Assembly (NCBI GenBank): GCA_903891325.1
Contig: CAITEC010000029.1
Span: 539-64,538, forward strand
DNA: 64,000 nt
Source of the DNA: an uncultured Opitutaceae bacterium
GTDB taxonomy: Bacteria; Verrucomicrobiota; Verrucomicrobiia; Opitutales; Opitutaceae
Reading direction: 5' to 3'
The notes under the pieces are model-generated. The model searched no databases and had not been told where the DNA came from. It was given only the letters and a program-made list of their open reading frames with translations. Shown here piece by piece: positions 17,829 to 39,765 of this stretch; within the stretch, counting starts at the first letter, position 1; every line of letters starts with the position of its first letter. Both the position numbers and the translations under genes were made by a program.

Positions 17829-20525
17829 TCAAGCCATTCCTTTGGCGGTGAAACGGTAGCGTCCCGCCGCCAGTTCGCAAACGACGGACCCGCCGCTGCG
17901 GCGGATCCGAGTGATGCCGCGCGAGCGGGCCAGCGATCGGCCCCCCTCGGTCACGTCCGCCGCGGAGCCCTTCGCCGCGGGGGGGAAGGACGCCGTCGCG
18001 GTCGTGTTGGGCGGGACGACCACCTCCCACTCGAGGCGCCCGCCGCGGAGCTTCCATGAGCTGAGGATCCCGCCGTGGATCGACTGCAGGCTGCCCCGCG
18101 CCGAGGTGATCTCGCCGCCGGGGCGGGGGGCGAGGAGGATGTGCTTGTAGGCGGGTTTCTCCGGATCCACGTCGATCCCGGCAACCGTCGTGTAGAGCCA
18201 GGCGCCGATCGCCCCGTAGGCATAGTGGTTGAAGGAGTTCATCCCCTTGTCCTGGAACCCGCGGTCGTGGGTCCAGCCGTCCCAGCGTTCCCAGATCGTG
18301 GTCGCGCCCTGCGTGACCGCGTAGAGCCAGGAGGGCCACTGCTTCTGGTGCAGGAGCTTGTAGGCGACGTCGATGCGGCCGGCCCGGGAGAGCACATCGC
18401 TCACGTAGGCGGTGCTGACAAATCCGGTCGAGAGCTTGTTGCCGCGCAGCTCGATGTCGCGGACCAGCTCGGCCAGGAGCCGGGGCCGGAGGGCCTCGGG
18501 CGCCAGGTCGAAGTGCAGGGTGAGGACGTAGCCGGTCTGCGTCAGGGCGGCGACGAGGCCGTCGCCGGTGAGGAAGCGCCTGCGGTAGGCGCGGACAACG
18601 CGCGCGACAAGCCGGTCGCAGCGGGCCGCGGCGGCGGAATCCCCCAGGATCCGGGCTATCCGGCCCACGAGCCGCGTGCTGTGGACGAAGAAGGCGGTGC
18701 CGATCAGGTCCTTGGGCGTGCCGCCCTCCACCTTGCCGCTGCCGTCAAGGGCCAGCCAGTCGCCGTACCCCAGCCAGCCCTTCGCGTCGGGGTGCGAGCG
18801 GATGAGCCCGATCGACTGCTTCTCCAGGAAGCCGATGTAGCGCTTCAGGGACTCGAAGTGGGTCCGCAGCAGCGCGGTGTCCCCGTAGCACAGGTACATG
18901 GTCCACGGGCAGATGACGGCCGCGTCGGCCCAGGCCGGCCCGCCGTCGCGGAACGGCCCGCCGACGTGCGGGGCGACCGAGGGCATCGCGCCGGCCTCGG
19001 TCTGCGCGTCGGCGATGTCGCGCTGCCACTTGTTGAAGAAGCCGATCACGTCGCGGTTCCAGGCGGCGGTCCTGCAGAACACCTGCGCGTCGCCCATCCA
19101 GCCCAGGCGCTCGTTGCGCTGGGGGCAGTCGGTGGGGACCTCCAGGAAGTTGCCGCGCTGGCCCCAGTCGATGTTGCTCTGGAGCTGGTTCACCAGCGCA
19201 TCGCTGCAGGAGAATTCGCCGGTCCGCGGGGTGTCGCTGTGCAGGACAATCCCCGTGATGGCCCCGGGTACGGGGTCGGCCGTCGGCCCGTAGATCTCGA
19301 CGTAGCGGAAGCCGTGGAAGGTGAACTGGGACTCCCAGGTCTCGCCGGCGGGGTCGCCCCGCAGCGTGTAGTGGTCGGTCTGGCGTGCCGCCCGGAGGTT
19401 GTCCGTGTAGATGTTGCCATCGGGGCTCAGGACCTCGGCAAAGCGCAGGCGGACCACCTGACCGGCGGCGCCGCGCACCTTCAGCTGGACCCGCCCGACC
19501 ATGTTCTGGCCCATGTCGTAGATCCAGATCGGCGTCTGCCAGGTCTCGATCCGCTTCGGGGGCCCGAGCGGGCGGAGTTCCTGGGTCGCGCGCACCGGGG
19601 GCCCGATGTGCGGGGAGATCGCGATCGCCGGGGAGGGGAATATCTCGGCCGGCTGCCAGGAGCTGTCGTCAAAGTCGGCGGTGTCCCAGCCGGGCATCTC
19701 CTTGCGCGCGTCGTAGGCCTCCCCGTTGATCAGGTCGTTGTCGACGATCGGGCCGAAGGCCGTCCGCCAGGAGTCGCCGGTCGCGATCGTCTGCGTCGAG
19801 CCGTCGGTGAAGGTGATGACGACCTGCGCGAGGAGGCGCGGCCGGTCGCCGTAGTAGGCGCGCGGCAGCCAGCCCACGTGCCCGCAGTACCAGCCGTCGC
19901 CCAGGATGGCGCCGGCGGCGTTGGCCCCCCGGCGCAGCAGCCGGGTCACGTCGTAGACGTCGTACTGGACCCGCGTCGCATAGTCGGTCCACCCCGGGCT
20001 GAACACGTCGGTGCCGACGCGCCGGCCGTTGATGTGGAACTCATACAGCCCCAGTGCCGTCGCGTAGAGCCGGGCCGAGGCGATCCGGCGCCCCACGTTG
20101 AAGATGGTCCGCAGGTGGGGGCTGGGGATCCCGGACTCCGGGCCGCCGGTCAGCGAGGTGCCGATCCACGACCCGGTCCAATCGCCCCGGTCCAGGAGCC
20201 CCGCCTCCCAGAACGCCGATCCGCTCTCGGAGCGCCTCCCGCGCTCGTCCCAGGCCTGCACCCGCCACCAGGCGCGCCGCCCGGACGAAAGCGGCTTTCC
20301 CCGGTAGGCGACCTGGGCGGTCGCGTCGGAGGCCACGCGGCCGCTGTCCCACAGGTCGGGCGCGGCGCCCTCGGCGGTCGAGACGAGGACGCGGTACCCG
20401 GTCTGGCGGGCGCCGCGGCGCCCGTCGGTCTCCAGTCTCCAGCTGAGCCGGGGAGCCGGGTCGTCAAGGCCCAGCGGGTTGGCCAGGTGATTGCAGCGCA
20501 GTTCGGTCGGGAGGGTGGTGGGCAT
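17829..20525 (-). CDS. alpha-L-rhamnosidase, GH78
   Basis: N-terminus LRCNHLANPLGLDDPAPRLSWRL, typical of the bacterial rhamnosidase N-domain; six-hairpin region FLEVPTDCPQRNERLGWMGDAQVF; start at ATG 20525 just below the upstream stop. Confidence 0.9.
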   Translation of the reverse strand: MPTTLPTELRCNHLANPLGLDDPAPRLSWRLETDGRRGARQTGYRVLVSTAEGAAPDLWDSGRVASDATAQVAYRGKPLSSGRRAWWRVQAWDERGRRSESGSAFWEAGLLDRGDWTGSWIGTSLTGGPESGIPSPHLRTIFNVGRRIASARLYATALGLYEFHINGRRVGTDVFSPGWTDYATRVQYDVYDVTRLLRRGANAAGAILGDGWYCGHVGWLPRAYYGDRPRLLAQVVITFTDGSTQTIATGDSWRTAFGPIVDNDLINGEAYDARKEMPGWDTADFDDSSWQPAEIFPSPAIAISPHIGPPVRATQELRPLGPPKRIETWQTPIWIYDMGQNMVGRVQLKVRGAAGQVVRLRFAEVLSPDGNIYTDNLRAARQTDHYTLRGDPAGETWESQFTFHGFRYVEIYGPTADPVPGAITGIVLHSDTPRTGEFSCSDALVNQLQSNIDWGQRGNFLEVPTDCPQRNERLGWMGDAQVFCRTAAWNRDVIGFFNKWQRDIADAQTEAGAMPSVAPHVGGPFRDGGPAWADAAVICPWTMYLCYGDTALLRTHFESLKRYIGFLEKQSIGLIRSHPDAKGWLGYGDWLALDGSGKVEGGTPKDLIGTAFFVHSTRLVGRIARILGDSAAAARCDRLVARVVRAYRRRFLTGDGLVAALTQTGYVLTLHFDLAPEALRPRLLAELVRDIELRGNKLSTGFVSTAYVSDVLSRAGRIDVAYKLLHQKQWPSWLYAVTQGATTIWERWDGWTHDRGFQDKGMNSFNHYAYGAIGAWLYTTVAGIDVDPEKPAYKHILLAPRPGGEITSARGSLQSIHGGILSSWKLRGGRLEWEVVVPPNTTATASFPPAAKGSAADVTEGGRSLARSRGITRIRRSGGSVVCELAAGRYRFTAKGMA

Positions 20526-20545: not shown

Positions 20546-21688
20546 TCACGCGACGGCGACGCGGTACTTGGAGATGGTGTCGGCCCTGAGCGGCAGTCCG
20601 AATCCGGGCCCCTCCGGCAGGTGCATGAACCCATCCTTGATGGCCGGCTGCTTTTCCGGGAGGTCGAACCACATCGGATCGCGGCTGTAGTTGGGGAATA
20701 TCTCCACGCAGATCCCGTTGGACACCCCGGCAAGAAGGTGGAGGGCCACCTGGGGTTCCTCGTGGTGGGCCATGTTCACCCCGAAGCTCGCGCCCATCCC
20801 GGCGATCCGGCGCCACTCGGTGACCCCGCCGGCGATCGTCACGTCCACGTTGAGGATGTCCACGGCGCCGCGAAGGATCAGGTCCTTGCAGCCAAAGCGC
20901 GAGATCTCGCCCTGGCCGAGGTTCACCGGGATGCCGGCGGTGCGGACGCGGGCGTTGCCCTCGATCTGGTCGTACCAGCGGACCGGCTCCTCCAGCCACG
21001 CGAGGTTCAGGTCGGCGGCGCCCCGGGCGAAGCGCAGGGCCTCCTCGACCGTCCACGCCTGGTTGGCGTCCGTGCACAGGTGAAACTTCGGGCCGGCGAG
21101 CTTTCGCACGCGGCGGGTCCTCGCCAGGTCCTCCTCCACGGTATGCCGCCCCACCTTGAGCTTCATGCCATGGATTCCCTGGTCGAGATAGTGCTGCACC
21201 TCGGTCTCGAGGGCCGCGGCCTTGGCCCCGTCCATCACGTAGCCGCCGATCGCGATCACCGGGACCTTGTCCCGGAAGCCGCCGAGGAGCTTGTAGACGG
21301 GCTGGTTGAGCGACTTGCCCAGGGCGTCCCAGAGGGCGATGTCGACCGCCGCGATCGCCTGGGTCTTGGCGCAGTGCTTTGCCAGGTCGAGCATGTGGAT
21401 GCTTCGGTTGCCCAGGTCGATCACCGCGTCCCACATCCGCTGCCAGTGGGCCTCGACGTCGCGCACGTCCGTCCCGGCGAGCAGGGGAGCGAAGGTCTGG
21501 TTGACCACGCGGCAGACATCCATCTGGTACTGCTCCTCGTCCCCGCCGAAGACCTCGCCGACGATCCCATTGTCCAGCTCGACCCGGGTGACGATCGTGT
21601 TTCGGGAGGTGATGACGTAGGTCCCCCCCTTGAAAACGTCCTCGAGTTTCCTGACGAGCGGAATGGCTTCGATGTGCTTGATTTTCAT
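20546..21688 (-). CDS. enolase-superfamily (mandelate racemase/muconate lactonizing type) sugar-acid dehydratase
   Basis: DIALWDALGK, GMKLKVG, CTDANQAW, LEEP, GQGE metal/acid-base motifs. Confidence 0.9.
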   Translation of the reverse strand: MKIKHIEAIPLVRKLEDVFKGGTYVITSRNTIVTRVELDNGIVGEVFGGDEEQYQMDVCRVVNQTFAPLLAGTDVRDVEAHWQRMWDAVIDLGNRSIHMLDLAKHCAKTQAIAAVDIALWDALGKSLNQPVYKLLGGFRDKVPVIAIGGYVMDGAKAAALETEVQHYLDQGIHGMKLKVGRHTVEEDLARTRRVRKLAGPKFHLCTDANQAWTVEEALRFARGAADLNLAWLEEPVRWYDQIEGNARVRTAGIPVNLGQGEISRFGCKDLILRGAVDILNVDVTIAGGVTEWRRIAGMGASFGVNMAHHEEPQVALHLLAGVSNGICVEIFPNYSRDPMWFDLPEKQPAIKDGFMHLPEGPGFGLPLRADTISKYRVAVA

Positions 21689-21705: not shown

Positions 21706-21758
21706 GTCATGTCCCAACTTCTTAAATCGAATGGCGATTTAAGAAGTTGGGACATGAC
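21706..21758. repeat. perfect 23-bp inverted repeat (hairpin, 7-nt loop) in a low-GC intercistronic insert
   Basis: gtcatgtcccaacttcttaaatc (21706-21728) / gaatggc / gatttaagaagttgggacatgac (21736-21758); the right arm encodes the last 6 codons and the stop of the upstream gene. Confidence 0.9.
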
Positions 21759-22296
21759 CCCTTAATGCATTGTTGTAGAGATCCCCGCCGACGGAGTCGT
21801 TGAGCACCACCGCGGGAAAACGCCGGAAACGCATCACATGGATCGCCTCGCTGAGCAGCTCGGGGAAGGCGACGACCCGGGCCTCCTCGATGCACAGCGC
21901 AAGCAGGGCCCCGGTCCCGCCAATCGCGCCGAAATAGACTCCCTGGTTGCGGACGAGCGCCTCCTTCACCTCCGGATTCAGGTAGCCCTTGCCGATGAAT
22001 CCGCGAAGCCCCTGGGCGAGGAGGGTCGGCATGAAGGGGTTCATCCGGCCGCTCGTCGTCGGGCCGGCCGAGCCGACGACCGCGCCGGGCTTCGCCGGCG
22101 AGGGGCCCACGAAGTAGATAAGCTGGCCGGCGAGCTCGACCGGAAGGGGCTCCCCTGCGCCGATCATCCGGAAGAGCCGCGCGCAGGCCTGGTCCCTTCC
22201 GGTGAGGACCGTGCCGGTCAGCTCCACCTCGTCGCCGGCCCGGAGCCCGGCGGCGGTCGCCGGGTCGAGGGGAAGGGACAGTTCGCGGGGGGTCAC
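21739..22296 (-). CDS. Fe-S hydro-lyase beta subunit (class I fumarase / L-tartrate dehydratase TtdB-type)
   Basis: GPTTSGRMNPF motif; GTG start overlaps the alpha-subunit stop (GTGA). Confidence 0.85.
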   Translation of the reverse strand: MTPRELSLPLDPATAAGLRAGDEVELTGTVLTGRDQACARLFRMIGAGEPLPVELAGQLIYFVGPSPAKPGAVVGSAGPTTSGRMNPFMPTLLAQGLRGFIGKGYLNPEVKEALVRNQGVYFGAIGGTGALLALCIEEARVVAFPELLSEAIHVMRFRRFPAVVLNDSVGGDLYNNALRGHVPTS

Positions 22297-23135
22297 AGCT
22301 CGACCTCCTGGTGCCGGTGCGCGTGGCACTCGATGTTCACGCTGACCGGAAGGCTCGCAACGTGGCAGGCGGCGGTCTCCACCTGGACGGCGAGCGATGT
22401 GGTCTTTCCGCCGTAGCCCTGCGGCCCGATCCCGCTCGCGTTGATCTGCCTGAGGATCTCCTCCTCGAGCTCGGCGACATGGGGCAGGGGGCTGCGCTCG
22501 CCGACGCGCCGGAGGAGCGACTTCTTCGCGAGGACGGCCGAGTACTCGAAGGAGCCGCCGACGCCCACGCCGACGACGATCGGCGGGCAGGCGTTGGGCC
22601 CGGCCCGTTTGGCGGTTTCGACCACGAAGGCGACGACCCCGTCCCGCCCGTCGGCCGGCGTGAGCATCCGGAACGCGCTCATGTTCTCGCAGCCGCCGCC
22701 TTTGGCGAGCAGCCGGAGCCGGAGGGTCTCCCCGGGGACGAGCTCGGTGTGGACGACCGCCGGCGTGTTGTCGCCGGTGTTCTTCCGGAGGATGGGGTCG
22801 CCGGTCACCGAGGCCCGCAGGTAGCCCGCCTTCCACCCGCGCCGGACCCCCTCGTTGACGGCCTCCCGCAGGGTCCCGCCCGTGATTCGGACGTCCTGCC
22901 CCACGTCGGCGAAGACGACGACCAGCCCGGTGTCCTGGCACATCGGCAGGGATCGCTCCGCCGCGAGGTCGGCGTTCCTTATGATCCTCGCCAGGGTGTT
23001 CCGCGCCAGGTCCGTGGTCTCGGCCGCGGCCGCCGTCCCCAGGGCGGCGCGCATGTCCGCGCCCAGGCTGAAATTGGCCCGCTGGGACAGTTCGGCGACC
23101 GCGTCGCGGATTTGGTCGGTGGTGATTGTCTTCAA
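22293..23135 (-). CDS. Fe-S hydro-lyase alpha subunit (class I fumarase / TtdA-type)
   Basis: LPMCQDTGLVVVF and KGGGCENMS motifs. Confidence 0.9.
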   Translation of the reverse strand: MKTITTDQIRDAVAELSQRANFSLGADMRAALGTAAAAETTDLARNTLARIIRNADLAAERSLPMCQDTGLVVVFADVGQDVRITGGTLREAVNEGVRRGWKAGYLRASVTGDPILRKNTGDNTPAVVHTELVPGETLRLRLLAKGGGCENMSAFRMLTPADGRDGVVAFVVETAKRAGPNACPPIVVGVGVGGSFEYSAVLAKKSLLRRVGERSPLPHVAELEEEILRQINASGIGPQGYGGKTTSLAVQVETAACHVASLPVSVNIECHAHRHQEVEL

Positions 23136-23150
23136 GCGGCGGGGGTGAAA

Positions 23151-24113
23151 TCAGGCGTACACGAAGTCGCCGACCGTCGCGGGCTTCGGGCTCTCGCTGG
23201 CGATCGCGAAGGCCAGCGCCTCGTCGTTGACCGCCTTCGCCTTCTCGCGGAGGGCCTGGAGCTGGGCCTCGGTCGCGCCGCGGGCGAGCAGGACCTTTTC
23301 CAGCCGGGGGATCGGGTCGGCCTTCTTCCACTTCATGGCCTCCTCCTCGTTCGCGTACTTGCCCGCCGAGATCGCGCTGTGGCGCTCCCAGCGGACGGTC
23401 TTGCACTCGATGAGCGTGGGCCCCTCGCCGCGGCGGGCGCGGGCCACCGCCTCCGCCACCGCGCCGTGGACGAGCGCCGGGTCGTTTCCGTCCACCGTGA
23501 CCCCGGGAAGCCCGAAACCGTCCGCGCGCTGCGAGATGTTCTCGATCGGGATCGCCGTGCGGGTCGGCACCGAGATCGCGAAGCCGTTGTTCTCGCAGAC
23601 GAGGACCAGCGGGATCTTCCAGAGGACGGCCATGTTCAGCGTCTCGAAGAAGGCCCCCTCGCAGGTGGCCCCGTCGCCGAAGAAGACGACGACGACCCTC
23701 CCGTTGCGCTTGAGCTGGTTCGCGAGCGCGACCCCGGCGGCGATCGGGATGTGGGCGGCGACTATCGCGTTGGTGCCCATGAAGCCCTTGTCCACGCCGC
23801 ACAGGTGCATGGACCCGCCGCGGCCCCCGCAGCACCCGGTCTCCTTGCACAGCAGCTCGGCCATGAGGCTGCGCGGCTCCAGGCCCTTGGCGATCGCGTG
23901 CCCGTGGCCGCGATAGGTCGCGAGGACCTGGTCGGCGGGCTCGAGGGCCGCGGCGGCCCCGACGGCGATCGCCTCCTGGCCGATGCACGGGTGGGTTGAG
24001 CCGGTGAAGAGGCCCTGGCGGAAGCTGGCGATCGCGTTGTCCTCGAAGTACCGGATGGTCCACATCTGCCCGTACCAGCCGAGCAGGGTTTTCAGTTCGG
24101 GTTCAGTTGTCAT
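23151..24113 (-). CDS. TPP-dependent 2-oxoacid/acetoin dehydrogenase E1 alpha subunit
   Basis: TPP-binding GDGATCEGAFFETLNMA ... ENNGFAIS. Confidence 0.9.
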   Translation of the reverse strand: MTTEPELKTLLGWYGQMWTIRYFEDNAIASFRQGLFTGSTHPCIGQEAIAVGAAAALEPADQVLATYRGHGHAIAKGLEPRSLMAELLCKETGCCGGRGGSMHLCGVDKGFMGTNAIVAAHIPIAAGVALANQLKRNGRVVVVFFGDGATCEGAFFETLNMAVLWKIPLVLVCENNGFAISVPTRTAIPIENISQRADGFGLPGVTVDGNDPALVHGAVAEAVARARRGEGPTLIECKTVRWERHSAISAGKYANEEEAMKWKKADPIPRLEKVLLARGATEAQLQALREKAKAVNDEALAFAIASESPKPATVGDFVYA

Positions 24114-24125
24114 GGATATTTTTTT

Positions 24126-24198
24126 AACAGGAAGGCCGGGAAGATCGTGAAGGTATCGGAAATCAGGCCTTCCCGTCGGGCTTCCCGATCTTCCTGTT
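24126..24198. repeat. repeat family C copy 1: imperfect long hairpin built from gaacaggaag/atcgggaag units
   Basis: aacaggaaggccgggaagatcgtgaagg ... ggccttcccgtcgggcttcccgatcttcctgtt; sits in the 108-nt E1-beta/E1-alpha intercistronic gap; related copy at 56165-56323. Confidence 0.75.
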
Positions 24199-24221
24199 CA
24201 AATTGGTTTGGATGATTGGAT

Positions 24222-25199
24222 TTATGCCATGGCGGTTCTGACGGCGGCCTCCACGTCGGCGGCGCCCGGGAAGACGCTGTCCTGGAGCTTGCCGGTCGGG
24301 ATGGGGAGGTCCCGGGCGGCCACCCGCTGGATGGGCGCCTGGAGGTAGTCGAAGGCGCCCTCCATGGCGCTCTGGGCGATTTCCGCCCCGGCGCCCGCGG
24401 TCTTGACCGCCTCGTGGGCCACGATGAGCCGGCCGGTCTTCCGGACCGAGGCGCAGATGCCCTCGCGGTCGAGCGGGGCGAGCGTGCGCAGGTCAAGGAC
24501 CTCGCACTCGATCCCCTCGGCGGCCAGCTTCGCGGCGGCCTCGAGCGAGGGCTTCACCATGCCGCTGTAGGTGGCGATCGTCGCGTCGGTCCCCTCGCGG
24601 GCGACGCGGAGTTTCCCCAGGGGGATCGGGTGATCCTCCTCCTCGACGGGCATCTTCGCCGCATAGAGCCGCACGTGCTCGATGAACACGGTCGGGTTGC
24701 CGTCGCGGATCGCCGCGATCAGCAGCCCCTTCGCGTCCGCGGCGTTGGACGGGACGATGACGTGCAGGCCGGGGGTGTGCATCATCCACGCCTCGAGGCT
24801 CTGGGAGTGCTGCGCGCCCAGGCCGAGCCGGTTGACGATCGGGGCCCGGAGGATGAGCGGCACGCTCACCTGTCCGCCGAAGAAATACCGCATCTTCGCC
24901 GCCTGGTTGCAGATCGCATCGGAGGCCAGGGTCAGGAAGTCGAGGAACTCGATCTCGACGATCGTCGGCATGCCGCTGATCGCCAGGCCCACGCCCCAGC
25001 CGGCCGTCGATGCCTCGCAGAGCGGGCCGTCGCGGACGCGGTCCGGGCCGAACTCATCGTAGAGGCCCTTGTAGACGCCGAAGCTCCCGCCGTAGGCGCC
25101 GATGTCCTGGCCCAGGAGCACGATGTCCTTGTTCCGCCGCATCTCGTGGCGGATGGCCTCGTTGATCGCTTCCGCCATGCTGAGTTGTCGTGTGGTCAT
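24222..25199 (-). CDS. 2-oxoacid/acetoin dehydrogenase E1 beta subunit
   Basis: MAEAINEAIRHEM...IVLLGQDIGAYGGSFGVYKGLYDEFGPDRVRDGPLCE, typical E1-beta N-terminus. Confidence 0.9.
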   Translation of the reverse strand: MTTRQLSMAEAINEAIRHEMRRNKDIVLLGQDIGAYGGSFGVYKGLYDEFGPDRVRDGPLCEASTAGWGVGLAISGMPTIVEIEFLDFLTLASDAICNQAAKMRYFFGGQVSVPLILRAPIVNRLGLGAQHSQSLEAWMMHTPGLHVIVPSNAADAKGLLIAAIRDGNPTVFIEHVRLYAAKMPVEEEDHPIPLGKLRVAREGTDATIATYSGMVKPSLEAAAKLAAEGIECEVLDLRTLAPLDREGICASVRKTGRLIVAHEAVKTAGAGAEIAQSAMEGAFDYLQAPIQRVAARDLPIPTGKLQDSVFPGAADVEAAVRTAMA

Positions 25200-25217
25200 T
25201 GTTTCGATGGTTAAGAG

Positions 25218-26009
25218 TCAGCGCCCGGCGCGGGATGCGGGGGCGTTGCGCCGCCGCGGGCCCGTGTAGGTGATCTCCGCGGGCTCCGCCGCCTTGAAGG
25301 GCCGCTCGCGCGTCATCTGCTCGTGGGCGTGCGCCGCATACCCGGGAGCCCGGCCGATGACGAAGAACGCCCGGCCCAGCCGGGCATCCATGCCCAGGTC
25401 GCACATGAGGGCGGCGATCACGCCGTCCACGTTGAGCGGAAGGCGCTTGCCGAAGACGGCGGTGGTCGCCCGCTCGATTCCGAGCGCCGCGCGGGTGTGC
25501 GACCCGGCCAGCTTCCATTTCCGGGCCAGGGACAGGAGAACCTTCGTGCGGGGATCGCTCCGGTGGACCGGGTGGCCGTAGCCGGGCATCCGCCGCTTCG
25601 CCGCCTGGAGCCCGCGCAGGACCGCGGTCCCCGTCTTCCCCTCCCTGACCGCCTGCGCCAGGATCAGCGCGCAGGGCTCGATCGCCCCGCCGTGCACGTC
25701 GCCGATCGCGCTTACGCCCGCGGCGACCGCGGTGGGGAGGGGAACCCCGCACGAGGCGACAAACCGGACCGCATCCACGCTGGGGGAGGCCAGGCTGTGC
25801 TCGCAGCAGGAGACCAGGATCGCCTCGACCAGGAGCCCCTCGCGTCCGCGGGGCAATTCGCCGGTGAGCAGGAGGTGGACGACGTCCCCGAAGGACCGCC
25901 GCCGCGTGAGCTGCTCGATGGGGTACCCCCGGACGAGAATTTCGCCGGGCCGGACACGGGAGATCGAGGTTTTCCAGAATTCGCTCATGGCAGGGGGGAG
26001 GTTGTCCAA
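25218..26009 (-). CDS. short citrate-synthase-fold protein (citryl-CoA lyase-like)
   Basis: 263 aa; GYGHPVHRSDPR (citrate synthase His loop) and AHAHEQ; lacks the N-terminal part of full-length citrate synthases. Confidence 0.8.
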   Translation of the reverse strand: MDNLPPAMSEFWKTSISRVRPGEILVRGYPIEQLTRRRSFGDVVHLLLTGELPRGREGLLVEAILVSCCEHSLASPSVDAVRFVASCGVPLPTAVAAGVSAIGDVHGGAIEPCALILAQAVREGKTGTAVLRGLQAAKRRMPGYGHPVHRSDPRTKVLLSLARKWKLAGSHTRAALGIERATTAVFGKRLPLNVDGVIAALMCDLGMDARLGRAFFVIGRAPGYAAHAHEQMTRERPFKAAEPAEITYTGPRRRNAPASRAGR

Positions 26010-26040
26010 GGCAGCACGTCTTTGAGGAGGGTGTCCATTC

Positions 26041-26946
26041 TCATCGGGCCGGGGTCGTCATCCCGGGGGCGCCCAGTCCCTCGAGGATGTCGTCGAACGC
26101 GTCGGCCACGTGCACGCCGACGGAGCGCAGGGCGTCGGCCTTCCCGCGGACCGACCCTCGCCCCCCCTCGACGATCACCGCGGCGTGGCCGAAGCGGACG
26201 CCCTCCAGGTCGTCCACGAAGCGGCCGGACAGGAAGGCGTTGATCCGCAGGCGGCTCGGCTTGCGCGCGAGCCGCTCGGCGAGCTGCTCCTCGGCGCCGC
26301 CGCCCGGCTCGCCGTAGATCACGACCGCGTCGGTCCCCGGGTCGTCCTCGAGCATCCCGATCAGGTCCGTGAAATTGGCGCCGATCACCGGGTCGCCGCC
26401 GACGCCGACGGCGATGCTCTGCCCGACGCCCCGGCTGGTCAGGAAACTGGCGATCTCCGTTGTCATCCCGCCGCTTCGCGAGAGGACCGCGGTCCGCCCG
26501 GGCATGAAGGAGCGCCGCACGTTGTCCACCCGGCCGCCGATCGTCCCCAGCTTGGCGACCCCGGGCCGGATCAGCCCCAGGGTGTTTGGCCCGATGACCG
26601 TGCAGCCGGCCTCCCGCGCGGCGACCAGCAGCCGGCTTGTGTCCAGCCGCGGGACGCGCTCGGTCATGATCAGGCAGAGCTTGATCCCGCCCGCGAAGGC
26701 CTCGAGCGCCGCGGCGGGCACGGCCGGGGCCGGGACCGAGATGATGGAGACGGTGGGACCGTGCCGGCGGACCGCCTCGGCGACCGTGTCGTAGACGGGC
26801 ACGCCGTGGACCTCCCGGCCGCCCTTTCCCGGGGTCACCCCGGCGACAATCGGGCTGCCGTACGCCAGGGAATCCTCGACCATTGCCGAGGCCTCGCGGC
26901 CGGTGATGCCCTGGACAAGGATGCCCGCCTTTGGATCAAGCAGCAT
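26041..26946 (-). CDS. acyl-CoA synthetase (ADP-forming) alpha subunit, SucD-like
   Basis: VQGITGREA, IGPNTLG, SRSGGMTTE and the phosphohistidine loop RFGHAAVI. Confidence 0.9.
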   Translation of the reverse strand: MLLDPKAGILVQGITGREASAMVEDSLAYGSPIVAGVTPGKGGREVHGVPVYDTVAEAVRRHGPTVSIISVPAPAVPAAALEAFAGGIKLCLIMTERVPRLDTSRLLVAAREAGCTVIGPNTLGLIRPGVAKLGTIGGRVDNVRRSFMPGRTAVLSRSGGMTTEIASFLTSRGVGQSIAVGVGGDPVIGANFTDLIGMLEDDPGTDAVVIYGEPGGGAEEQLAERLARKPSRLRINAFLSGRFVDDLEGVRFGHAAVIVEGGRGSVRGKADALRSVGVHVADAFDDILEGLGAPGMTTPAR

Positions 26947-28117
26947 GGGTCACCGCCAATCGCGCCGCCTCGTCGAGCGAGACCTCGCGCCCCAGGGCGC
27001 GGATCCCGGCCGCTGCCATGATGGCGCGGGCCTCGTCTTCCCAGGAGCCGGGGATCCGGAAGACGGCGATCGTGCCGGCCGCCGTTCGGCCTGCGCGATC
27101 CAGCCCCAGCAGGACGCCGCGGGCCATGACGTCGGCCCGGGTGTTGTTCACGACATTCATGATGACGGCGAGCTTCCGCACGCCGGGTTTTCCGAGAAGG
27201 AGCGCGGTGAGGGCGGCCACCTTCTCCTCGGTGGGATTCCCGCCGACCTCGCAGTAGTTTGCCGGGTTCCCCCCGTGGCGCTGGATCGCATCGAAAACAG
27301 TCAGGCTCGCGCCGCCCCCGCCGATCAGCAGGGCCAGGTCGCCGCCGAACTCGACCACCCGGCCGGCGACGCCGCGGTGGTCCAGGGCGTCGATCCTCGC
27401 GGCCTCCGCCTCGAGCGGCGTCGCGGGCCGGCCCAAGGATCCCTGGGAGATGGCGCCGAGGGGCGCCAGGCGCACCTGCTGCCGCGCGGCCGCGTCGTCG
27501 TCGATTTCCACGCGGGCATCGAGGCCGATCAGGATTCCATCCGTCGTTTCCGCGAGCGGGTTGATCTCCACGGTGATCGCGTCGCATTCCACGAGGGCGC
27601 GCGTGACCTTCTCGAGCACCCGCCCGAGTTCCGCGGCGACCCGCGCGTCGATTCCGAGCCCGTCCACCATTTCCGCCCCGGCGGATGCCGGCAGGGGGCC
27701 GCGGGGATCGAAGCTGCGCCGGGCGACGTTGCGGGACGATTCGACCTCGATGCCCCCGGCCGCCGCGAGGATCGCGACCGGCAGCTTCGCGGCGCAGTCC
27801 CAGGCCGCGCCCACGTAAAATTCGCGCCGGATGGAAACCCGGGGTTCGACGGACACGGCGGCGATCCGGTGCCCCCTCAGGGTCGTCCCCAGCAGCTCGG
27901 CCGCCGCCGTCCACGCCGCGCCCGGGTCGTTGGCCACCTTGACGGCGCCGGCCTTGCCGCGGCCGCCGAAGGGGACTTGCGCCTTGACGACGACCGGGCC
28001 GCCGATCTCCGCGGCAGCCTCGCGCGCCGCGTCGGCCGACGCGGCGACGGTCCCGGCGTTCAGGTTCAGGCCGAACCCGGCGAGGAGCCGTTTTCCCTGG
28101 TGCTCGAGCAGCCTCAT
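26936..28117 (-). CDS. acyl-CoA synthetase beta subunit, SucC / citryl-CoA synthetase-like (ATP-grasp)
   Basis: MRLLEHQGKRLLAGFG N-terminus, VVVKAQVPFGGRGKAG, GGNPANYCEVGGNPTEEKV; ATG 28117 overlaps the upstream stop (ATGA). Confidence 0.9.
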   Translation of the reverse strand: MRLLEHQGKRLLAGFGLNLNAGTVAASADAAREAAAEIGGPVVVKAQVPFGGRGKAGAVKVANDPGAAWTAAAELLGTTLRGHRIAAVSVEPRVSIRREFYVGAAWDCAAKLPVAILAAAGGIEVESSRNVARRSFDPRGPLPASAGAEMVDGLGIDARVAAELGRVLEKVTRALVECDAITVEINPLAETTDGILIGLDARVEIDDDAAARQQVRLAPLGAISQGSLGRPATPLEAEAARIDALDHRGVAGRVVEFGGDLALLIGGGGASLTVFDAIQRHGGNPANYCEVGGNPTEEKVAALTALLLGKPGVRKLAVIMNVVNNTRADVMARGVLLGLDRAGRTAAGTIAVFRIPGSWEDEARAIMAAAGIRALGREVSLDEAARLAVTHAA

Positions 28118-28590
28118 GGCGCGATGCCGCCGGCCTTCTTCACGTCGTCGAGGGAGATCCTGCCCCCCGGGCCGGTCCCGGGGATCGAGCCCAGGTCCAG
28201 GCCGAGATCCGACGCGAGCTTCCGCGCCGCCGGCGCGGCGCGGATGCCCCCGGCAGGCTCGGGCGCCGGTGCGGGGCCGCCTGCCGCAGCGGCCGGTCCG
28301 GCCGCGGAACCGGGGGCGGCACCGCTTCCCGGTTCGTCCAGGGGCTCGTCCGCCCCGGTCGTGACGATGCAAAGGAGCGCCTTCTCCCCGATGGTGTCGC
28401 CCTTCGCCACGCAGAGCCTGCGGATGAAGCCGGCCACGGGGCAGGGCGCCTCGACGACGCTTTTTTGCGTCTCGATCTCGACGATCGGCTGGCCCGCCGC
28501 GACCGGGTCGCCCACGCCCACAAGCCACCGGGCGACCAGGACGCTCTCCATGGTCAGTTCAAGTTGCGGAAGCAGGACGGCGGTTTGCAT
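28114..28590 (-). CDS. lipoyl domain + peripheral-subunit-binding domain protein (E2 lacking its catalytic core)
   Basis: Lipoyl motif QPIVEIETQKSVVEAPCPVAG; Ala/Pro/Gly linker; PSBD AAPAARKLASDLGLDLGSIPGTGPGGRISLDDV; stop right after the PSBD. Confidence 0.85.
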   Translation of the reverse strand: MQTAVLLPQLELTMESVLVARWLVGVGDPVAAGQPIVEIETQKSVVEAPCPVAGFIRRLCVAKGDTIGEKALLCIVTTGADEPLDEPGSGAAPGSAAGPAAAAGGPAPAPEPAGGIRAAPAARKLASDLGLDLGSIPGTGPGGRISLDDVKKAGGIAP

Positions 28591-28602: not shown

Positions 28603-28902
28603 TCAGAATTCCTTGACGTTGAAAAACCGGGCCTCGGGCGGCCGGCTCCAGCAGCGGGCGTAGGCCGCCGCGATCCTATCGTGGCCGGGGCTCCGGCGCC
28701 ACTCCATGAGCCGGCGCAGGCTCTCAAACTCCACGACGACGTCGACCTCCTCCGGGCGGGCCGGGTTGGCGGGCGTGAGCCGGCGCAGGGAGATGAAGCC
28801 CGGCCGCGCGGAGGCGAGCCGGTGGTGCTCGCGGATCACCCGGCCGAAGGCCCGGCGCCCGGCCGGGGTGAGGAAGTGGCGGACCTGGATGGCGACCTTC
28901 AT
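28603..28902 (-). CDS. ABM (antibiotic biosynthesis monooxygenase-like, ferredoxin-fold) small protein
   Basis: 99 aa; VVVEFESLRRLMEWRRSPGHDRI resembles the ABM signature; ATGA overlap with the upstream gene. Confidence 0.7.
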   Translation of the reverse strand: MKVAIQVRHFLTPAGRRAFGRVIREHHRLASARPGFISLRRLTPANPARPEEVDVVVEFESLRRLMEWRRSPGHDRIAAAYARCWSRPPEARFFNVKEF

Positions 28903-30026
28903 ACGCGCTCGTTGCGGCCGCTCCGGGCCGAGCGGTAGGCCGTGTCTATGATCTCGACGGAGCGCATTGCGGCCTCCCCGGGCGAGAAATTCTCCGTCGT
29001 GAGCCCGAGGATCAGCTCGACGAACTGGTGGGGCGGCCCGTCGCAGCGGTAGGCGGCATCGCCCTTTCGCAGGGGGACCACCTCGTGCCGGCCGTCGTGG
29101 GTGTCCAGGGAGAGGTGGTCGCGGGCGATGTCGAGCGAGAGGACGCCGCGGTCCCCGAAAATCCTCACGTCGAGCTGGAATGACCCGGGCGTGCCGGGAG
29201 GAAGCGTCGCCGAGCCGGAGACCGTCCCAATCGCGCCGCCCTTGAACCGGACGCTGATCGCGTCGTACATGTCCACCCGGGAGCCGACGTTGCTCAGGTT
29301 GGCAAAGACCGAGGTCGCCCGCAGGCCGGTCAGCCAGAGCATGAGGCCGGTGGCATGCGAGAGCTGGCCCTGGCCGTAGCCGCCGCGCGAGACCCGCGGG
29401 TCCGACCAGGTGGAAAGGCTGCTGGGGACGTAGGCGGTGTCCGTGAAGTCGAAGGACTTCCCCGAGAAGAGGTTCTTCACCGGGGAGGCCATGTGGCAGA
29501 GGACGTAGTCGATCCGGCCCACGCTGCCGCGGTCCATCAGGGCCCGGGCCCGAAGGCCGATCGGGCGGTGGTTCCAGCCGTAGGGGACGACGACGTGCAG
29601 CCCCTTTCGCGCGGCCAGGGCGACGATCTTCCGGGCATCGGCCGCGTCCGTCGTGAAGGGCTTCTCGACCATCACGTGGCAGCCGGCCCGCAGGGCGGCG
29701 AGCGCCTGGGCCGCATGGGTCGCGTGGGGCGTGGCGATCACGACCCCGTCGAGGTCCTGCCGCAGCAGTTCGCGGTAGTCGTCGGTCGTGTGCGCAAATC
29801 CGAAATCCCGCCGGCAGCGCTCGAGGACCGCCGGATCCAGCCCGCAGACCGAGACCATCTCGACGTCGCGGCGCGCCGCCAGGACGGGCATGTGGTTGGT
29901 GGTCGCCCACCAGCCCGCGCCGATGAACCCGAGCCGCGCCCGCCGGGTCCGCGACTGCGGGCGCGCCGCCATCCGCCGGATCGCGTCCGGGGAGAGGACG
30001 CCCACGTTTCGCTCCTGGCGCCTCAT
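28899..30026 (-). CDS. Gfo/Idh/MocA family oxidoreductase
   Basis: LGFIGAGWWATTNHMP Rossmann motif and HVMVEKP; ATG 30026 overlaps the upstream TGA. Confidence 0.9.
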   Translation of the reverse strand: MRRQERNVGVLSPDAIRRMAARPQSRTRRARLGFIGAGWWATTNHMPVLAARRDVEMVSVCGLDPAVLERCRRDFGFAHTTDDYRELLRQDLDGVVIATPHATHAAQALAALRAGCHVMVEKPFTTDAADARKIVALAARKGLHVVVPYGWNHRPIGLRARALMDRGSVGRIDYVLCHMASPVKNLFSGKSFDFTDTAYVPSSLSTWSDPRVSRGGYGQGQLSHATGLMLWLTGLRATSVFANLSNVGSRVDMYDAISVRFKGGAIGTVSGSATLPPGTPGSFQLDVRIFGDRGVLSLDIARDHLSLDTHDGRHEVVPLRKGDAAYRCDGPPHQFVELILGLTTENFSPGEAAMRSVEIIDTAYRSARSGRNERV

Positions 30027-30763
30027 AGCATGAACCAGCCGCCGTTGATGTCGAAGGTCGCGCCCGTGCAGTAGCTGCACTCGTCGCTCGCCAGGAAGGC
30101 GATCAGGGCCGCCACCTCGGCGGGCTTGCCGAGGCGCTTGAGCGGGATCTGGTCGGCGATCGCGCGGACCTTCTCCGGCGGGAAATTGCGCATGATCTCC
30201 GTGTCGAGGACCCCGGGGGCGACGCAGTTGATCAGGATGTTGTCGGCGGCGACCTCGCGGGCGATCGACTTGCTGAACATCACGATCCCGCCCTTGGTGC
30301 CGCTGTAGATGCTCGCGTTGACGATCGCGCCCGTGCGCCCGGAGCTGGATGCGACGTTGACGATGCGGCCGCCGCCCTGGCGCTTCATGACCGGGCAGAC
30401 CGCCTGCATCAGGAAGTACTGGCTCTTTGCGTTGATGCCCATCAGCCGGTCCCAGTCCTCCTCGGTCGAGGTCTCGAAGGGAAGGCGGGGGCAGACCCCC
30501 GCGTTGTTGACCAGGATGTCGATCCGGCCGAAGTCGCGGACGACGTCGGCAACGAGTTGGCGAAGCTCCGCGACGCGGGAGACGTCCACCCGGTACCCGC
30601 GCGCCTCCGGCCCGCAGTCGGCGGCCGCCTTCGCAACCTCGGCCTCCTGCAGGTCCGCGAGCGCGACCCGGGCGCCCTGGGAGGCGAGGGTACGGGCGGT
30701 GACGGCGCCCAGCCCGCGGGCCGCGCCGGTCACGATGGCCACCTTGTTGTCGAGTCGGAACAT
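30023..30763 (-). CDS. short-chain dehydrogenase/reductase (SDR)
   Basis: VTGAARGLG, NNAG, YSGTKGG catalytic YxxxK. Confidence 0.9.
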   Translation of the reverse strand: MFRLDNKVAIVTGAARGLGAVTARTLASQGARVALADLQEAEVAKAAADCGPEARGYRVDVSRVAELRQLVADVVRDFGRIDILVNNAGVCPRLPFETSTEEDWDRLMGINAKSQYFLMQAVCPVMKRQGGGRIVNVASSSGRTGAIVNASIYSGTKGGIVMFSKSIAREVAADNILINCVAPGVLDTEIMRNFPPEKVRAIADQIPLKRLGKPAEVAALIAFLASDECSYCTGATFDINGGWFML

Positions 30764-37697: not shown

Positions 37698-37706
37698 CCC
37701 AGCCCG

Positions 37707-38663: not shown

Positions 38664-38705
38664 GGATGTCCGTCCGCCGGCCGGGATTGGGTGATGGGTG
38701 AGATT

Positions 38706-38789
38706 GAGGGTGGAGCGGGACTCCGGGCACGCTGGTTTGAGTCAGAGTCGCTCAGCGCGCTCGGAGATCGCGCTCCACCTTCAGGCCTG
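38706..38789 (+). repeat. repeat family A, copy 1 (full length)
   Basis: gagggtggagcg ... tccgggcacgctggtt ... tcgctcagcgcgctcggagatcgcgctccaccttcaggcctg; terminal arms ggtggagcg / cgctccacc are inverted repeats. Confidence 0.85.
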
Positions 38790-38795
38790 TGGTGC

Positions 38796-38824
38796 TTGAC
38801 TTTTATGGTATCATATTGATACTG
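38796..38824 (+). promoter_or_regulatory. putative hicAB promoter with palindromic operator
   Basis: TTGACT at 38796-38801; GTATCA-TAT-TGATAC inverted repeat at 38808-38822 overlapping a GATACT -10-like hexamer (16-nt spacer). Confidence 0.4.
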
Positions 38825-38830
38825 CTTATC

Positions 38831-39025
38831 GTGCCGCGTAAAGTCCGTCAGTTGATTTCGGATCTTGAGCGCGCAGGTTTTGTCAATCGTGGTGGCAAAG
38901 GCAGTCATCGCAACCTGGAGCATCCGAAAGGGCTCCGGGTGACACTATCCGGCAAACTGGGAGACGATGCGCTGCACTACCAGGAGAAGCTAACCCGCAA
39001 AGCCATTCAGGAGTCCCGGAAATGA
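38831..39025 (+). CDS. hicA: type II toxin HicA (mRNA interferase)
   Basis: 64 aa from GTG 38831; KVRQLISDLERAGFVNRGGKGSHRNLEHP matches the HicA/YcfA GSH core; toxin-first order; lower GC. Confidence 0.8.
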   Translation: MPRKVRQLISDLERAGFVNRGGKGSHRNLEHPKGLRVTLSGKLGDDALHYQEKLTRKAIQESRK

Positions 39026-39530: not shown

Positions 39531-39544
39531 TTTCGAGTGGAAAG

Positions 39545-39745: not shown

Positions 39746-39765
39746 TGTCTAACCTTTGGAGTTGT

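Follow-up and report, generated by a model that had tools for sequence, protein, structure and literature searches.

The window analysed in this study is a 64-kb stretch of a contig from an uncultured Opitutaceae bacterium (CAITEC010000029.1). Its minus strand carries a block of eight genes which encode, in the direction of transcription, a lipoyl protein, the large (SucC-like) and small (SucD-like) subunits of a CoA ligase, a short citrate-synthase-fold protein, the beta and alpha subunits of a thiamine diphosphate (TPP)-dependent E1, and the alpha and beta subunits of a class I hydro-lyase, called FumA and FumB below. The coordinates and domains that the sequence-only reading had given these eight open reading frames (ORFs) were all confirmed by an ORF and Pfam check (Table 1). 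The window has a G+C content of approximately 70%, which gives rise to many spurious ORFs; the eight genes occupy frames with high G+C at the third codon position (high GC3) and have clean domain content. The ligase and the citrate-synthase-fold protein, collectively referred to here as the trio, resemble citryl-CoA synthetase (CCS) and citryl-CoA lyase (CCL).

Table 1. Genes of the eight-gene block, listed first, and of its surroundings, with their positions in the 64-kb window (aa, amino acids)
Feature	Coordinates	Strand	Evidence or remark
Truncated E2: Biotin_lipoyl and E3_binding (peripheral subunit-binding domain, PSBD) only, 158 aa, without acyltransferase core	28114-28590	-	Pfam
CCS-like large subunit (SucC-like; ATP-grasp_2 and Citrate_bind)	26936-28117	-	Pfam; contains GGNPANYCEVGGNP
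CCS-like small subunit (SucD-like; CoA_binding and Ligase_CoA), phosphohistidine loop RFGHAAVIVE	26041-26946	-	Pfam
CCL-family protein, short citrate-synthase fold (C-terminal part of Citrate_synt only), with GYGHPVHRSDPR	25218-25988; alternative TTG start 26009	-	
TPP-dependent E1 beta (Transket_pyr and Transketolase_C)	24222-25178; alternative start 25199	-	
TPP-dependent E1 alpha (E1_dh)	23151-24113	-	
Class I (Fe-S) fumarase/tartrate-dehydratase-type alpha subunit, FumA (Fumerase, PF05681)	22293-23135	-	
Class I hydro-lyase beta subunit, FumB (Fumerase_C, PF05683)	21739-22296	-	
CUT1-type ABC transporter: SBP_bac_1/SBP_bac_8 binding protein and two BPD_transp_1 permeases	35563-38663	+	Divergent
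AraC-family regulator (AraC_binding and HTH_18), divergent from the operon	34490-35404	+	L001 1543-2457
Short-chain dehydrogenase/reductase (SDR) 1 (adh_short)	33514-34356	-	Below every NCBIfam equivalog cut-off
AP_endonuc_2, xylose-isomerase-like TIM barrel	32672-33517	-	Pfam
MR_MLE1, enolase-superfamily acid-sugar dehydratase/cycloisomerase (MR_MLE_N/C)	31529-32662	-	Pfam
SDR 2, KduD-like	30786-31520	-	TIGR01832, 286 bits, below cut-off 339
SDR 3, conserved member	30023-30763	-	
Gfo/Idh/MocA oxidoreductase (GFO)	28899-30005	-	Pfam
ABM-fold (dimeric alpha/beta barrel) protein, 99 aa	28603-28902	-	PF03992, 23.8 bits, cut-off 23.1
MR_MLE2, enolase-superfamily protein	20546-21688	-	
Glycoside hydrolase family 78 (GH78) alpha-L-rhamnosidase (Bac_rhamnosid domains)	17829-20525	-	Window-specific
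PhyH-family Fe(II)/2-oxoglutarate dioxygenase (PF05721)	16826-17788	-	
GH140-like protein (DUF5060 and Apiosidase)	14639-16777	-	Window-specific

The eight genes belong to a longer minus-strand transcription unit with the order SDR, AP_endonuc_2, MR_MLE, SDR, SDR, GFO, ABM-fold protein, the eight genes, MR_MLE, GH78, PhyH and GH140. They had been described as mostly overlapping at their starts and stops. Overlaps are present at three of the seven junctions (lipoyl protein/SucC-like, 4 nt; SucC-like/SucD-like, 11 nt; FumA/FumB, 4 nt), and the other four are gaps of 15–108 nt. Public gene calls start the CCL gene at the ATG at 25988, giving 256 aa, versus 263 aa from the TTG at 26009; an exact protein look-up with the 263-aa form found no match, and the SucD-like query matched. 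Identical copies of the locus were found on 23 independent metagenome contigs, among them contigs from JGI 3300029913 and from several ENA assemblies. One of these identical loci, L001 (related loci carry L numbers throughout), provided the precomputed annotation of the flanks, which was mapped as window position = 36947 - x. In the ABC-transporter region, high-GC3 ORFs lie at 36741–37697 and 37698–38663. No terminator-like site was found on the minus strand between 14500 and 34499, in a scan that itself performs at chance level, as the promoter and terminator counts over this interval equal the shuffle expectation. Scans of the whole window for tRNA genes and Rfam families gave no match.

The citrate-synthase-fold protein passes the curated citryl-CoA-lyase model NF004869 (225.1 bits, cut-off 212). 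Its score against the CCL of Hydrogenobacter thermophilus (6hxp) is 191 bits (E 1.8e-55), compared to 78 bits for the best citrate synthase (CS). The protein is only 256–263 aa long and its residues 60–236 correspond to positions 169–352 of the 357-position PF00285 profile. The citrate-synthase-type residues His106 (HGGA), His146 (G(Y/F)GH), Asp195 (NVDG), Arg154 (DPR) and Arg220 are invariant in the alignment and in the related loci; the equivalent of Arg421' of pig CS, the third oxaloacetate-binding arginine, is not reliably placed from sequence alone. Judged by these scores and residues, the protein is a confident member of the citryl-CoA lyase family. Enzymes of this family interconvert a 3-hydroxy-3-carboxy-acyl-CoA with acetyl-CoA and a 2-oxo acid.

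The large ligase subunit passes the Pfam Citrate_bind model PF16114 (30.7 bits, cut-off 26.8) and falls well below the curated SucC equivalog (222.7 bits versus 370). The small subunit is likewise below both curated SucD equivalogs (244.3 versus 336 and 251.8 versus 353 bits). As a single sequence, the large subunit scores 159 bits against the succinyl-CoA synthetase (SCS) beta subunit of Thermus and 158 bits against the CCS of H. thermophilus. Over its whole length it is thus about as close to one as to the other, but locally it has two features of CCS that are missing from SCS. The first is the CCS-type insertion RIDxxDHRGxAG, a stretch (RIDALDHRGVAGRVVEF; PLEAEAARIDALDHRGVAGRVVEF) with a gap-free alignment to CCS (6hxq_B) and a gapped one to SCS beta. 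The second is the acid-binding loop, which reads NNTRADV, like the NNTRIDV of CCS and unlike the GGITRAD of SCS; in the form MNVVNNTRAD it is present in 41 of 46 scanned family members, which are all of the close orthologues. In the small subunit, the phosphohistidine loop RFGHAAV(I/M)VE is conserved across the related loci. The malate-CoA ligase beta model is matched by the large subunit with 161 bits, far below its cut-off of 604. On these alignments, the ligase belongs to the SCS/CCS superfamily as a divergent member whose substrate site has CCS-like features.

By profile and PDB-sequence comparisons, then, the trio is a CCS/CCL-type set in the domain order of ATP-citrate lyase (ACL), as the sequence-only reading had proposed. 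The closest known system is CcsAB/Ccl of H. thermophilus (6hxq, 6hxp), which cleaves citrate in two steps in the reductive tricarboxylic acid (rTCA) cycle. Outside CO2-fixing hot-spring bacteria such a three-gene set is not otherwise known. Both systems consist of three separate proteins from the same three families, and the window trio shares with that of Hydrogenobacter a lyase that passes the CCL cut-off, the catalytic His/His/Asp and two arginines, the RIDxxDHRGxAG insertion, the NNTRxDV loop and the phosphohistidine loop. There are clear differences. The lyase matches its Hydrogenobacter counterpart at E 1.8e-55, the small subunit is nearer to SCS alpha, and the substrate need not be citrate. 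In addition, the trio is found in heterotrophic metagenome-assembled genomes (MAGs) instead of autotrophs, and, inside a sugar-acid operon, it separates the E2 gene of a pyruvate dehydrogenase (PDH)-like complex from the E1 genes. With ACL (AclBA of Chlorobium; ACLY) the trio shares the module order ATP-grasp/citrate-binding, CoA-binding/phosphohistidine and CS-fold lyase, and the matches are weak but significant. Unlike in ACL, the lyase is a separate gene (26041–26946 versus 25218–25988, a 52-nt gap) and not fused to the small subunit, and the scores against ACL subunits are well below those against CCS and SCS (101–158 bits for the beta subunit).

More distant SucC–SucD–CCL trios, with CCL proteins 33–42% identical, were seen in L026, L030, L033, L034, L036 and L129. 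Their carriers are MAGs of Desulfurellales, Gammaproteobacteria and Candidatus Daviesbacteria, and these trios lack the NNTRAD loop. A separate clade of CCL proteins (L088–L126, for example L097 10001–10771; 46–53% identity) comes mostly from contigs with Ga01877xx accessions. Its members have no SucCD neighbours, lie beside Thy1, an MBL-fold protein, an Lhr helicase and DUF2153, and are probably archaeal. This clade was rejected as a clue to function because of its archaeal-looking housekeeping context without SucCD.

Relatives of the block were found by searching one-genome-per-species contigs and JGI metagenomes with the CCL alignment, which yielded 68 loci of the same orthologous group. 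Identities to the window proteins are 61–79% for CCL, 71–80% for the SucD-like, 52–66% for the SucC-like and 67–82% for the E1 subunits, and the next CCL relatives among the fetched loci reach at most 53%. The loci lie in MAGs and metagenomes of Verrucomicrobiota (Chthoniobacterales, Terrimicrobiaceae, Opitutaceae), Planctomycetota (Tepidisphaerales, Pirellulales), Lentisphaerota, Latescibacterota and Gemmatimonadaceae, sampled in peat, groundwater, lakes and open-ocean waters (TARA, ALOHA, ETNP). The conserved order, seen in five phyla with identities of 64–80% for the trio proteins, is E2, CCS-large, CCS-small, CCL, E1beta, E1alpha, (FumAB or PrpD-like), MR_MLE. Upstream there are usually a second MR_MLE gene, an SDR, a GFO and an AP_endonuc_2 gene and sometimes a rhamnose mutarotase. 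The presence of this core order in several phyla, together with the 23 identical contigs, makes the block more than a chance association or a local accident.

The frequency of each component was determined in the 33 related loci of at least 10 kb, with a match defined as at least 45% identity. Here, the trio (SucC, SucD and CCL) was found in 31–33 loci, E1 alpha and beta in 21, MR_MLE2 in 20, MR_MLE1 in 19 and FumAB in 14, and the window's own GH78, GH140, PhyH, AraC and ABC-transporter genes in none. The linkage to enolase-superfamily dehydratases that the sequence-only reading had noted is conserved across phyla. Orthologues of MR_MLE1 and of MR_MLE2 are each known from 21 loci, with median identities of 73% and 72%, and MR_MLE2 is usually the last gene of the block. 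AP_endonuc_2 orthologues (45–51% identity) are present in L009, L014 and L025, and SDR 3 orthologues (66–70% identical) lie beside MR_MLE1 in L008, L009 and L014; SDR 2 is window-specific. The ABM-fold protein has orthologues, 38–39% identical, directly upstream of the lipoyl or E2 gene in L047 and L008.

The block is fullest in L130 and L132, where up to 18 genes form a tightly packed operon. Their first part comprises AP_endonuc_2, (a glyoxalase-fold protein), GFO, SDR, rhaM, MR_MLE1, (a P450) and a 485-aa FucI/AraA-like protein. The second comprises E2, CCS-large, CCS-small, CCL, E1beta, a 480-aa ceramidase-N-like hydrolase, E1alpha, FumA, FumB and MR_MLE2. L130 has in addition a Zn-dependent alcohol dehydrogenase and an aldehyde dehydrogenase. 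Other loci are reduced or altered. FumAB is missing in L009, L047, L069 and L117; a MmgE/PrpD-like dehydratase and a corrinoid methyltransferase pair follow E1alpha in L012 and L049; E1 and E2 are missing in L020 and L022; and the trio stands alone in L010, L011, L021 and L131, which belong to marine Lentisphaeria and Pirellulales. Neighbours of the lone trios are an M81/MlrC peptidase, a GH123_N/HEAT protein, a sulfatase, PhyH genes and MR_MLE. The trio thus forms the invariant core of the system, which E1/E2, the hydro-lyase and both MR_MLE genes join often, but not always, as separable modules.

These comparisons bear on one alternative explanation, that the block is ordinary central metabolism (housekeeping SCS, citrate synthase or rTCA citrate cleavage, PDH and fumarase) placed beside sugar genes by accident. 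Every protein does belong by name to a TCA-related family, and CCS and CCL are used as marker genes of the rTCA cycle and autotrophy in genome surveys (PMC9802188). However, both ligase subunits are well below the curated SucC and SucD cut-offs, which bears out the earlier suggestion that the trio is something other than housekeeping SucCD and GltA, and the CS-fold protein lacks the N-terminal half of citrate synthase. The annotated parts of the window and seven annotated neighbourhoods showed no 2-oxoglutarate:ferredoxin oxidoreductase, aconitase, isocitrate dehydrogenase or fumarate reductase. Across five phyla, MR_MLE, SDR and GFO genes accompany the block, the E2 of the window is truncated, and the carriers are heterotrophic, polysaccharide-degrading lineages. 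A housekeeping role is therefore very improbable.

Genes for O2-dependent PhyH or P450 enzymes are found in or beside many of the clusters. PhyH was considered as a defining partner of the trio and rejected; such genes lie near the trio in many loci, but at 22–30% identity they are not orthologues and amount to a recurrent context. An extra gene with start/stop overlaps is inserted between E1beta and E1alpha in several loci (L014 11977–12861, L064 3747–4553, L074 8536–9990, L075/L132 11760–13196, L130 11811–13268). It encodes either a PhyH dioxygenase or a 480-aa protein that matches only the N-terminal half of neutral ceramidase, and the ceramidase-like gene occurs in 11 of the clustered loci. 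Non-homologous amide hydrolases also lie beside the trio, namely M81/MlrC (L011, L054, L060, L123, L131), CN_hydrolase/amidase (L020/L022) and PIG-L (L131 4217–4915). They are commonest beside the trio-only marine loci, and the acid may come from an amide-linked conjugate.

The E1 subunits are of the PDH type. E1 beta passes NF006667 (333.7 bits, cut-off 321). The best solved relative of E1 alpha is human PDH E1 alpha (E 6e-57), and the E1 alpha of the window scores below the PDH equivalog cut-off (334 versus 394 bits). The position preceding the SucC-like gene is taken in most orthologous clusters by a gene for an E2 of 365–400 aa, in which a lipoyl domain and a PSBD are accompanied by a 2-oxoacid_dh core whose DHRxxDG motif is intact. 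Core and motif are present in L007–L009, L012, L014, L015, L018 and L049. In the window, the protein ends after the PSBD and its stop overlaps the start of the SucC-like gene. Clean core-less forms of this kind (158–167 aa, with a stop abutting the SucC-like start) are found only in the window, in L047 (TARA) and in L078. The sequence-only reading had listed a core-less lipoyl protein as part of the set. This protein is real in the window but represents a minority, derived state and no design feature of the system, as most orthologues are full E2s. A short lipoyl form in L024 lies amid fragmented SucC- and SucD-like genes (7395–9235; long-read chromosome OZ244235.1) and is probably a frameshift artefact of long-read assembly.

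A single origin of the core-less form was considered and rejected, because the window, L047 and L078 are not exclusively grouped in either the SucD+CCL or the lipoyl/PSBD tree, both of which are short, low-resolution neighbour-joining trees without support values. The loci nearest to the window carry a full E2, being L054 and L007 in one tree and L008 in the other. The core-less state is a derived loss of the E2 core that probably took place repeatedly. As E1 is highly conserved in the window, a different E2 core or some other enzyme must service the lipoyl–PSBD arm. For a 2-oxo-acid dehydrogenase it is unusual to have a lipoyl arm but no core, and the repeated appearance of this state raises the question of how an acyl-lipoyl arm unloads without its own acyltransferase. 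No E3-sized Pyr_redox protein, which would be the dihydrolipoamide dehydrogenase (E3), was found in any annotated neighbourhood. PDH and acetoin dehydrogenases with a heterotetrameric E1 are similar in their PDH-type E1 alpha and beta and in the E2 of most relatives, with one lipoyl domain, PSBD and core. They differ in that here no E3 is clustered, the order is E2 ... E1beta–E1alpha with three unrelated genes between, and the window E2 is core-less.

FumA passes NF004885 (386 bits, cut-off 276) and has the conserved cluster-cysteine motifs MCQDTG, GGGCEN and NACPP. FumB scores 188 bits against NF005310, below the cut-off of 238. In L012 and L049 a MmgE/PrpD-family dehydratase replaces FumAB or MR_MLE2, and a comparison of L024 with L012 places PrpD at the MR_MLE2 position; this protein is far from the PrpD equivalog (45 bits, cut-off 950). 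The hydro-lyase slot is thus filled by FumAB or PrpD, and the class I fumarase, PrpD and MR_MLE families all hydrate or dehydrate beside carboxylates, which points to a hydroxy-polycarboxylate of the citrate or alkylmalate type as the central intermediate. After the PrpD-like gene, L049 (14327–16205) and L012 carry a URO-D/MtaA-like methyltransferase and a B12-binding protein (families f24, f31). This pair resembles a corrinoid-dependent O-demethylase and, taken with the P450 or PhyH genes, the substrate may be O-methylated or require hydroxylation.

The best PDB matches of MR_MLE1 are uncharacterised MR_MLE entries and it reaches no NCBIfam cut-off. MR_MLE2 matches 3msy, 4h83 and 3no1 (E 2.5e-86), which are structural-genomics entries without an assigned function, and a full-text search for the codes 3MSY, 4H83 and 3NO1 returned nothing relevant. 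Against the L-rhamnonate dehydratase model (cut-off 393), MR_MLE1 and MR_MLE2 score 136 and 107 bits, both far below, and MR_MLE2 matches the solved L-fuconate dehydratases only weakly (E ~1e-22). The Gfo/Idh/MocA protein has no specific match in PDB or NCBIfam. Assigning a substrate by homology was consequently rejected, since MR_MLE1, MR_MLE2, the SDRs, GFO and AP_endonuc_2 are below all NCBIfam equivalog cut-offs.

Further information on the substrate comes from the sugar genes. The sequence-only reading had linked the block to GH78 and GH140 and named aceric acid and apiose-derived apionate as attractive substrates. The link to the glycosidases is confined to the window, with GH78, GH140, AraC and the ABC transporter absent from 68 of 68 related loci. 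As the relatives have no GH78/GH140 and many of them come from the open ocean, where rhamnogalacturonan II (RG-II) is unexpected, aceric acid or apiose is unlikely as a family-wide substrate. Both remain candidates in this organism, and the Rha-Api stub of RG-II is a possible and reasonable feed for the window operon given GH78 and GH140. The hallmarks of the apiose/apionate pathway are an apionate oxidoisomerase, a DUF1537 kinase and a RuBisCO-like transcarboxylase/decarboxylase. Among the called genes at 16041–36946, no match to RuBisCO_large or DUF1537 was found, though a GFO gene is present. The sugar-specific genes of the relatives are a rhaM-family L-rhamnose mutarotase (L047, L074, L075/L132, L117) and the FucI/AraA-like isomerase, which is a weak match to the sulfoquinovose-isomerase model (72 bits, cut-off 700). 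These genes hint at a 6-deoxyhexose in preference to a branched sugar.

The non-phosphorylative pathways for L-rhamnose and L-fucose use a sugar dehydrogenase, a lactonase, an MR_MLE dehydratase, an SDR 4-dehydrogenase and an aldolase or FAH-type hydrolase. The present system resembles them in its SDR and GFO dehydrogenases, its MR_MLE enzymes, the rhaM-family mutarotase of the relatives and the GH78 of the window. It differs in that the CCS/CCL and E1/E2 block stands where the usual carbon–carbon cleavage step would be, and neither the locus nor the annotated neighbourhoods showed an aldolase or FAH-family hydrolase domain.

We tentatively favour a reading in which the trio is a CCS/CCL-type module that was recruited into a conserved, probably aerobic, sugar-acid catabolic operon, where it would act by activation and cleavage, followed by PDH-like oxidation. 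In the first part of this scheme, the GFO and SDR oxidoreductases, AP_endonuc_2 and the two MR_MLE enzymes would oxidise and dehydrate a sugar, which is probably a 6-deoxyhexose (L-rhamnose or L-fucose) in the relatives and would be a product released by GH78/GH140 in this organism. The Fe-S hydro-lyase, or the PrpD-like enzyme of some relatives, would then yield a 2-substituted malate, HOOC-CH2-C(OH)(X)-COOH. As expected from family membership, the SucC/SucD-like enzyme would convert this acid to its thioester using ATP, via the phosphohistidine, and CoA. The CCL-family protein would cleave the thioester in a retro-Claisen reaction to acetyl-CoA and a 2-oxo acid, X-CO-COOH. Finally, the PDH-like E1, the lipoyl E2 and a housekeeping E3 would oxidatively decarboxylate this acid, which may be pyruvate or closely similar to it, and so produce an acyl-CoA. 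In the window, where the E2 core is lost, the lipoyl–PSBD arm would be unloaded by another E2 core or some other enzyme.

Several lines of evidence are consistent with this order of events. CCS and CCL are never apart among the close orthologues, which argues for sequential action on the same CoA ester, as in Hydrogenobacter. The trio is found without E1/E2 (L020, L022) or alone, as would be expected if activation and cleavage are self-contained and central metabolism can take the 2-oxo acid. The PDH-like character of E1 (NF006667 passed, human PDH E1 alpha nearest) fits the oxidation of a pyruvate-like 2-oxo acid. That the window, L047 and L078 have lost the E2 core but kept a conserved E1 is easier to understand with E1/E2 downstream of the trio than with E1/E2 as its supplier of acyl-CoA. 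The PhyH and P450 genes in or near many clusters suggest an aerobic, catabolic setting.

Other observations weigh against it. The main weakness is that a linear hexose would give X = H only, barring a rearrangement or a branched precursor, and no sugar route is evident. The profile of the 15-sequence large-subunit family scores 241.7 bits against SCS beta (3ufx) versus 223.2 bits against CCS (6hxq_B), and the small subunit is nearer to SCS alpha (241 bits) than to the CCS small subunit (207 bits). The accessory enzymes all score below the curated functional cut-offs. FumA passes a fumarate-hydratase equivalog and, on that score, may interconvert fumarate and malate or tartrate and oxaloacetate. 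Every carrier is uncultured. Finally, the acyl-CoA-forming E2 gene lies directly before CCS/CCL, an arrangement that the reverse direction fits too.

That reverse direction is a serious rival, albeit an unlikely one. The trio would in this case be an ATP-conserving, split (methyl)citrate-synthase module. E1/E2 would make an acetyl- or propionyl-type acyl-CoA from a sugar-derived 2-oxo acid, or by an acetoin-dehydrogenase-like cleavage of the CH3-CO-CH(OH)- end of an oxidised 6-deoxy sugar acid; FumAB and MR_MLE2 would turn tartrate-type C4 diacids into oxaloacetate; CCL would condense the two; and the CCS-like enzyme would release the acid with formation of ATP. As an option, MR_MLE2 or PrpD, with FumAB, might carry out dehydration and rehydration in the style of the methylcitrate cycle. 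The position of E2 directly upstream of CCS/CCL speaks for such a scheme, every complete cluster having the trio between its E2 and E1 genes, as do the PrpD-family gene after E1alpha in L012 and L049 and the aldehyde dehydrogenase gene of L130. The FumA equivalog match points the same way, its family including tartrate dehydratases and MR_MLE including D-tartrate dehydratase. The rhaM and FucI/AraA-like genes of the relatives hint at 6-deoxyhexoses, and the methyl-carbinol end of these sugars is suited to TPP cleavage of the acetoin type. The ACL reaction is, moreover, near equilibrium, and Desulfobacter postgatei runs ATP-citrate lyase in the ATP-forming direction. However, a second dedicated citrate synthase would be redundant in aerobes, for which the recurrent PhyH/P450 genes argue; the window, L047 and L078 lack the E2 core that would be needed to supply acyl-CoA; and the trio-only loci have no nearby acyl-CoA source or oxaloacetate-forming enzyme. 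Cleavage is favoured over synthesis on account of the function of the characterised homologues, the trio-only and E1/E2-less loci and the tolerated loss of the E2 core.

A further alternative has E1/E2 feeding CCL directly. MR_MLE would produce a 2-keto-3-deoxy-aldarate of the 4-hydroxy-2-oxoglutarate type, HOOC-CO-CH2-C(OH)(X)-COOH, which the PDH-like complex would convert to an X-malyl-CoA by oxidative decarboxylation. CCL would cleave this malyl-, citramalyl- or citryl-CoA to acetyl-CoA and glyoxylate, pyruvate or oxaloacetate, and the CCS-like enzyme would only interconvert free acid and thioester, for salvage or ATP gain. This would account for the interleaved E2, CCS, CCL and E1 genes. 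In established enzymology, 2-keto-3-deoxy acids are the standard products of MR_MLE dehydratases and, as 2-oxo acids, natural E1 substrates, and two MR_MLE genes flank the block in most loci. A pentarate or branched aldarate precursor would, however, be required, and nothing in the loci speaks for either. In addition, CCS would become dispensable, yet it is never separated from CCL among the close orthologues, and in the loci without E1/E2 (L020, L022, L021, L131) it would be the only thioester source. We regard direct feeding as improbable.

Activation followed by cleavage, the reading preferred here, has partial parallels in known carboxylate pathways. The 2-methylcitrate cycle (PrpC, PrpD, aconitase) likewise combines a CS-fold enzyme with a dehydratase for a citrate-like acid, and a PrpD-family gene is present in L012 and L049. 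It differs in that PrpC hydrolyses its own thioester, for which there is here a separate ADP-forming ligase, and no PrpB is found. Mesaconate and itaconate degradation uses a class I fumarase as mesaconase, a CoA transferase and a CitE-type citramalyl-CoA lyase, and the serine cycle uses malate thiokinase and malyl-CoA lyase. These citramalyl-CoA and malyl-CoA routes share the logic of hydrating an unsaturated diacid, making a CoA ester and cleaving it to acetyl-CoA and a 2-oxo acid. Unlike in the present system, their lyase has the CitE/HpcH fold, and itaconate is activated by a CoA transferase.

Full-text literature searches combining citryl-CoA lyase or synthetase with apiose, rhamnose, aceric acid, PVC (Planctomycetota–Verrucomicrobiota–Chlamydiota) taxa and citramalyl-/malyl-CoA returned CCS/CCL only in the rTCA context, and the papers on "citryl-/citramalyl-CoA lyase" concern CitE-type enzymes only. 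The statement that no described sugar pathway uses this enzyme combination thus holds for the literature searched. The enzyme families are known; their context and partnership are undescribed and conserved across phyla, probably with a new substrate. If our reading is correct, this would be the first catabolic, non-autotrophic role of CCS and CCL, which have so far been regarded as hallmarks of autotrophic CO2 fixation. A conserved heterotrophic CCS/CCL clade linked to sugar-acid genes would also lead to false-positive rTCA calls when MAGs are surveyed.

In L130 and L132 the operon probably encodes an entire sugar pathway that has not been described, with a common sugar of plant and algal glycans, perhaps a 6-deoxyhexose, as its substrate. 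A wider and somewhat more doubtful proposal is that of a multi-phylum aerobic pathway of uncultured polysaccharide degraders, in which CCS/CCL and a dedicated PDH-like complex would dismantle a sugar-derived, citrate-like acid to acyl-CoA, with some lineages, that of the window among them, using a free lipoyl–PSBD carrier that lacks an E2 core of its own and is akin to H-protein. The carriers are abundant uncultured lineages of PVC, Latescibacterota and Gemmatimonadaceae in peat and ocean.

Elsewhere in the window there are segments of low G+C content (58–61%) at 1–2000, 38001–40000 and 56001–58000, and a gap of approximately 1.1 kb without a convincing ORF (38663–39753) lies in such a segment. 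Other glycan-related genes are a second PhyH gene (5633–6664, plus strand), a GH4 gene (8438–10090, plus strand), a GH2 gene (41162–43114, plus strand) and a gene for a 1099-aa protein with DUF4450 and an MGH1-like GH domain (43120–46419, plus strand). In addition, five long, high-GC3 ORFs of 386–949 aa have no Pfam match at E <= 1e-4. These lie at 10068–12152, 12156–15005 and 6661–8316 on the minus strand and at 3778–5802 and 39965–41125 on the plus strand, and two of the five extend the minus-strand operon directly downstream of GH140.

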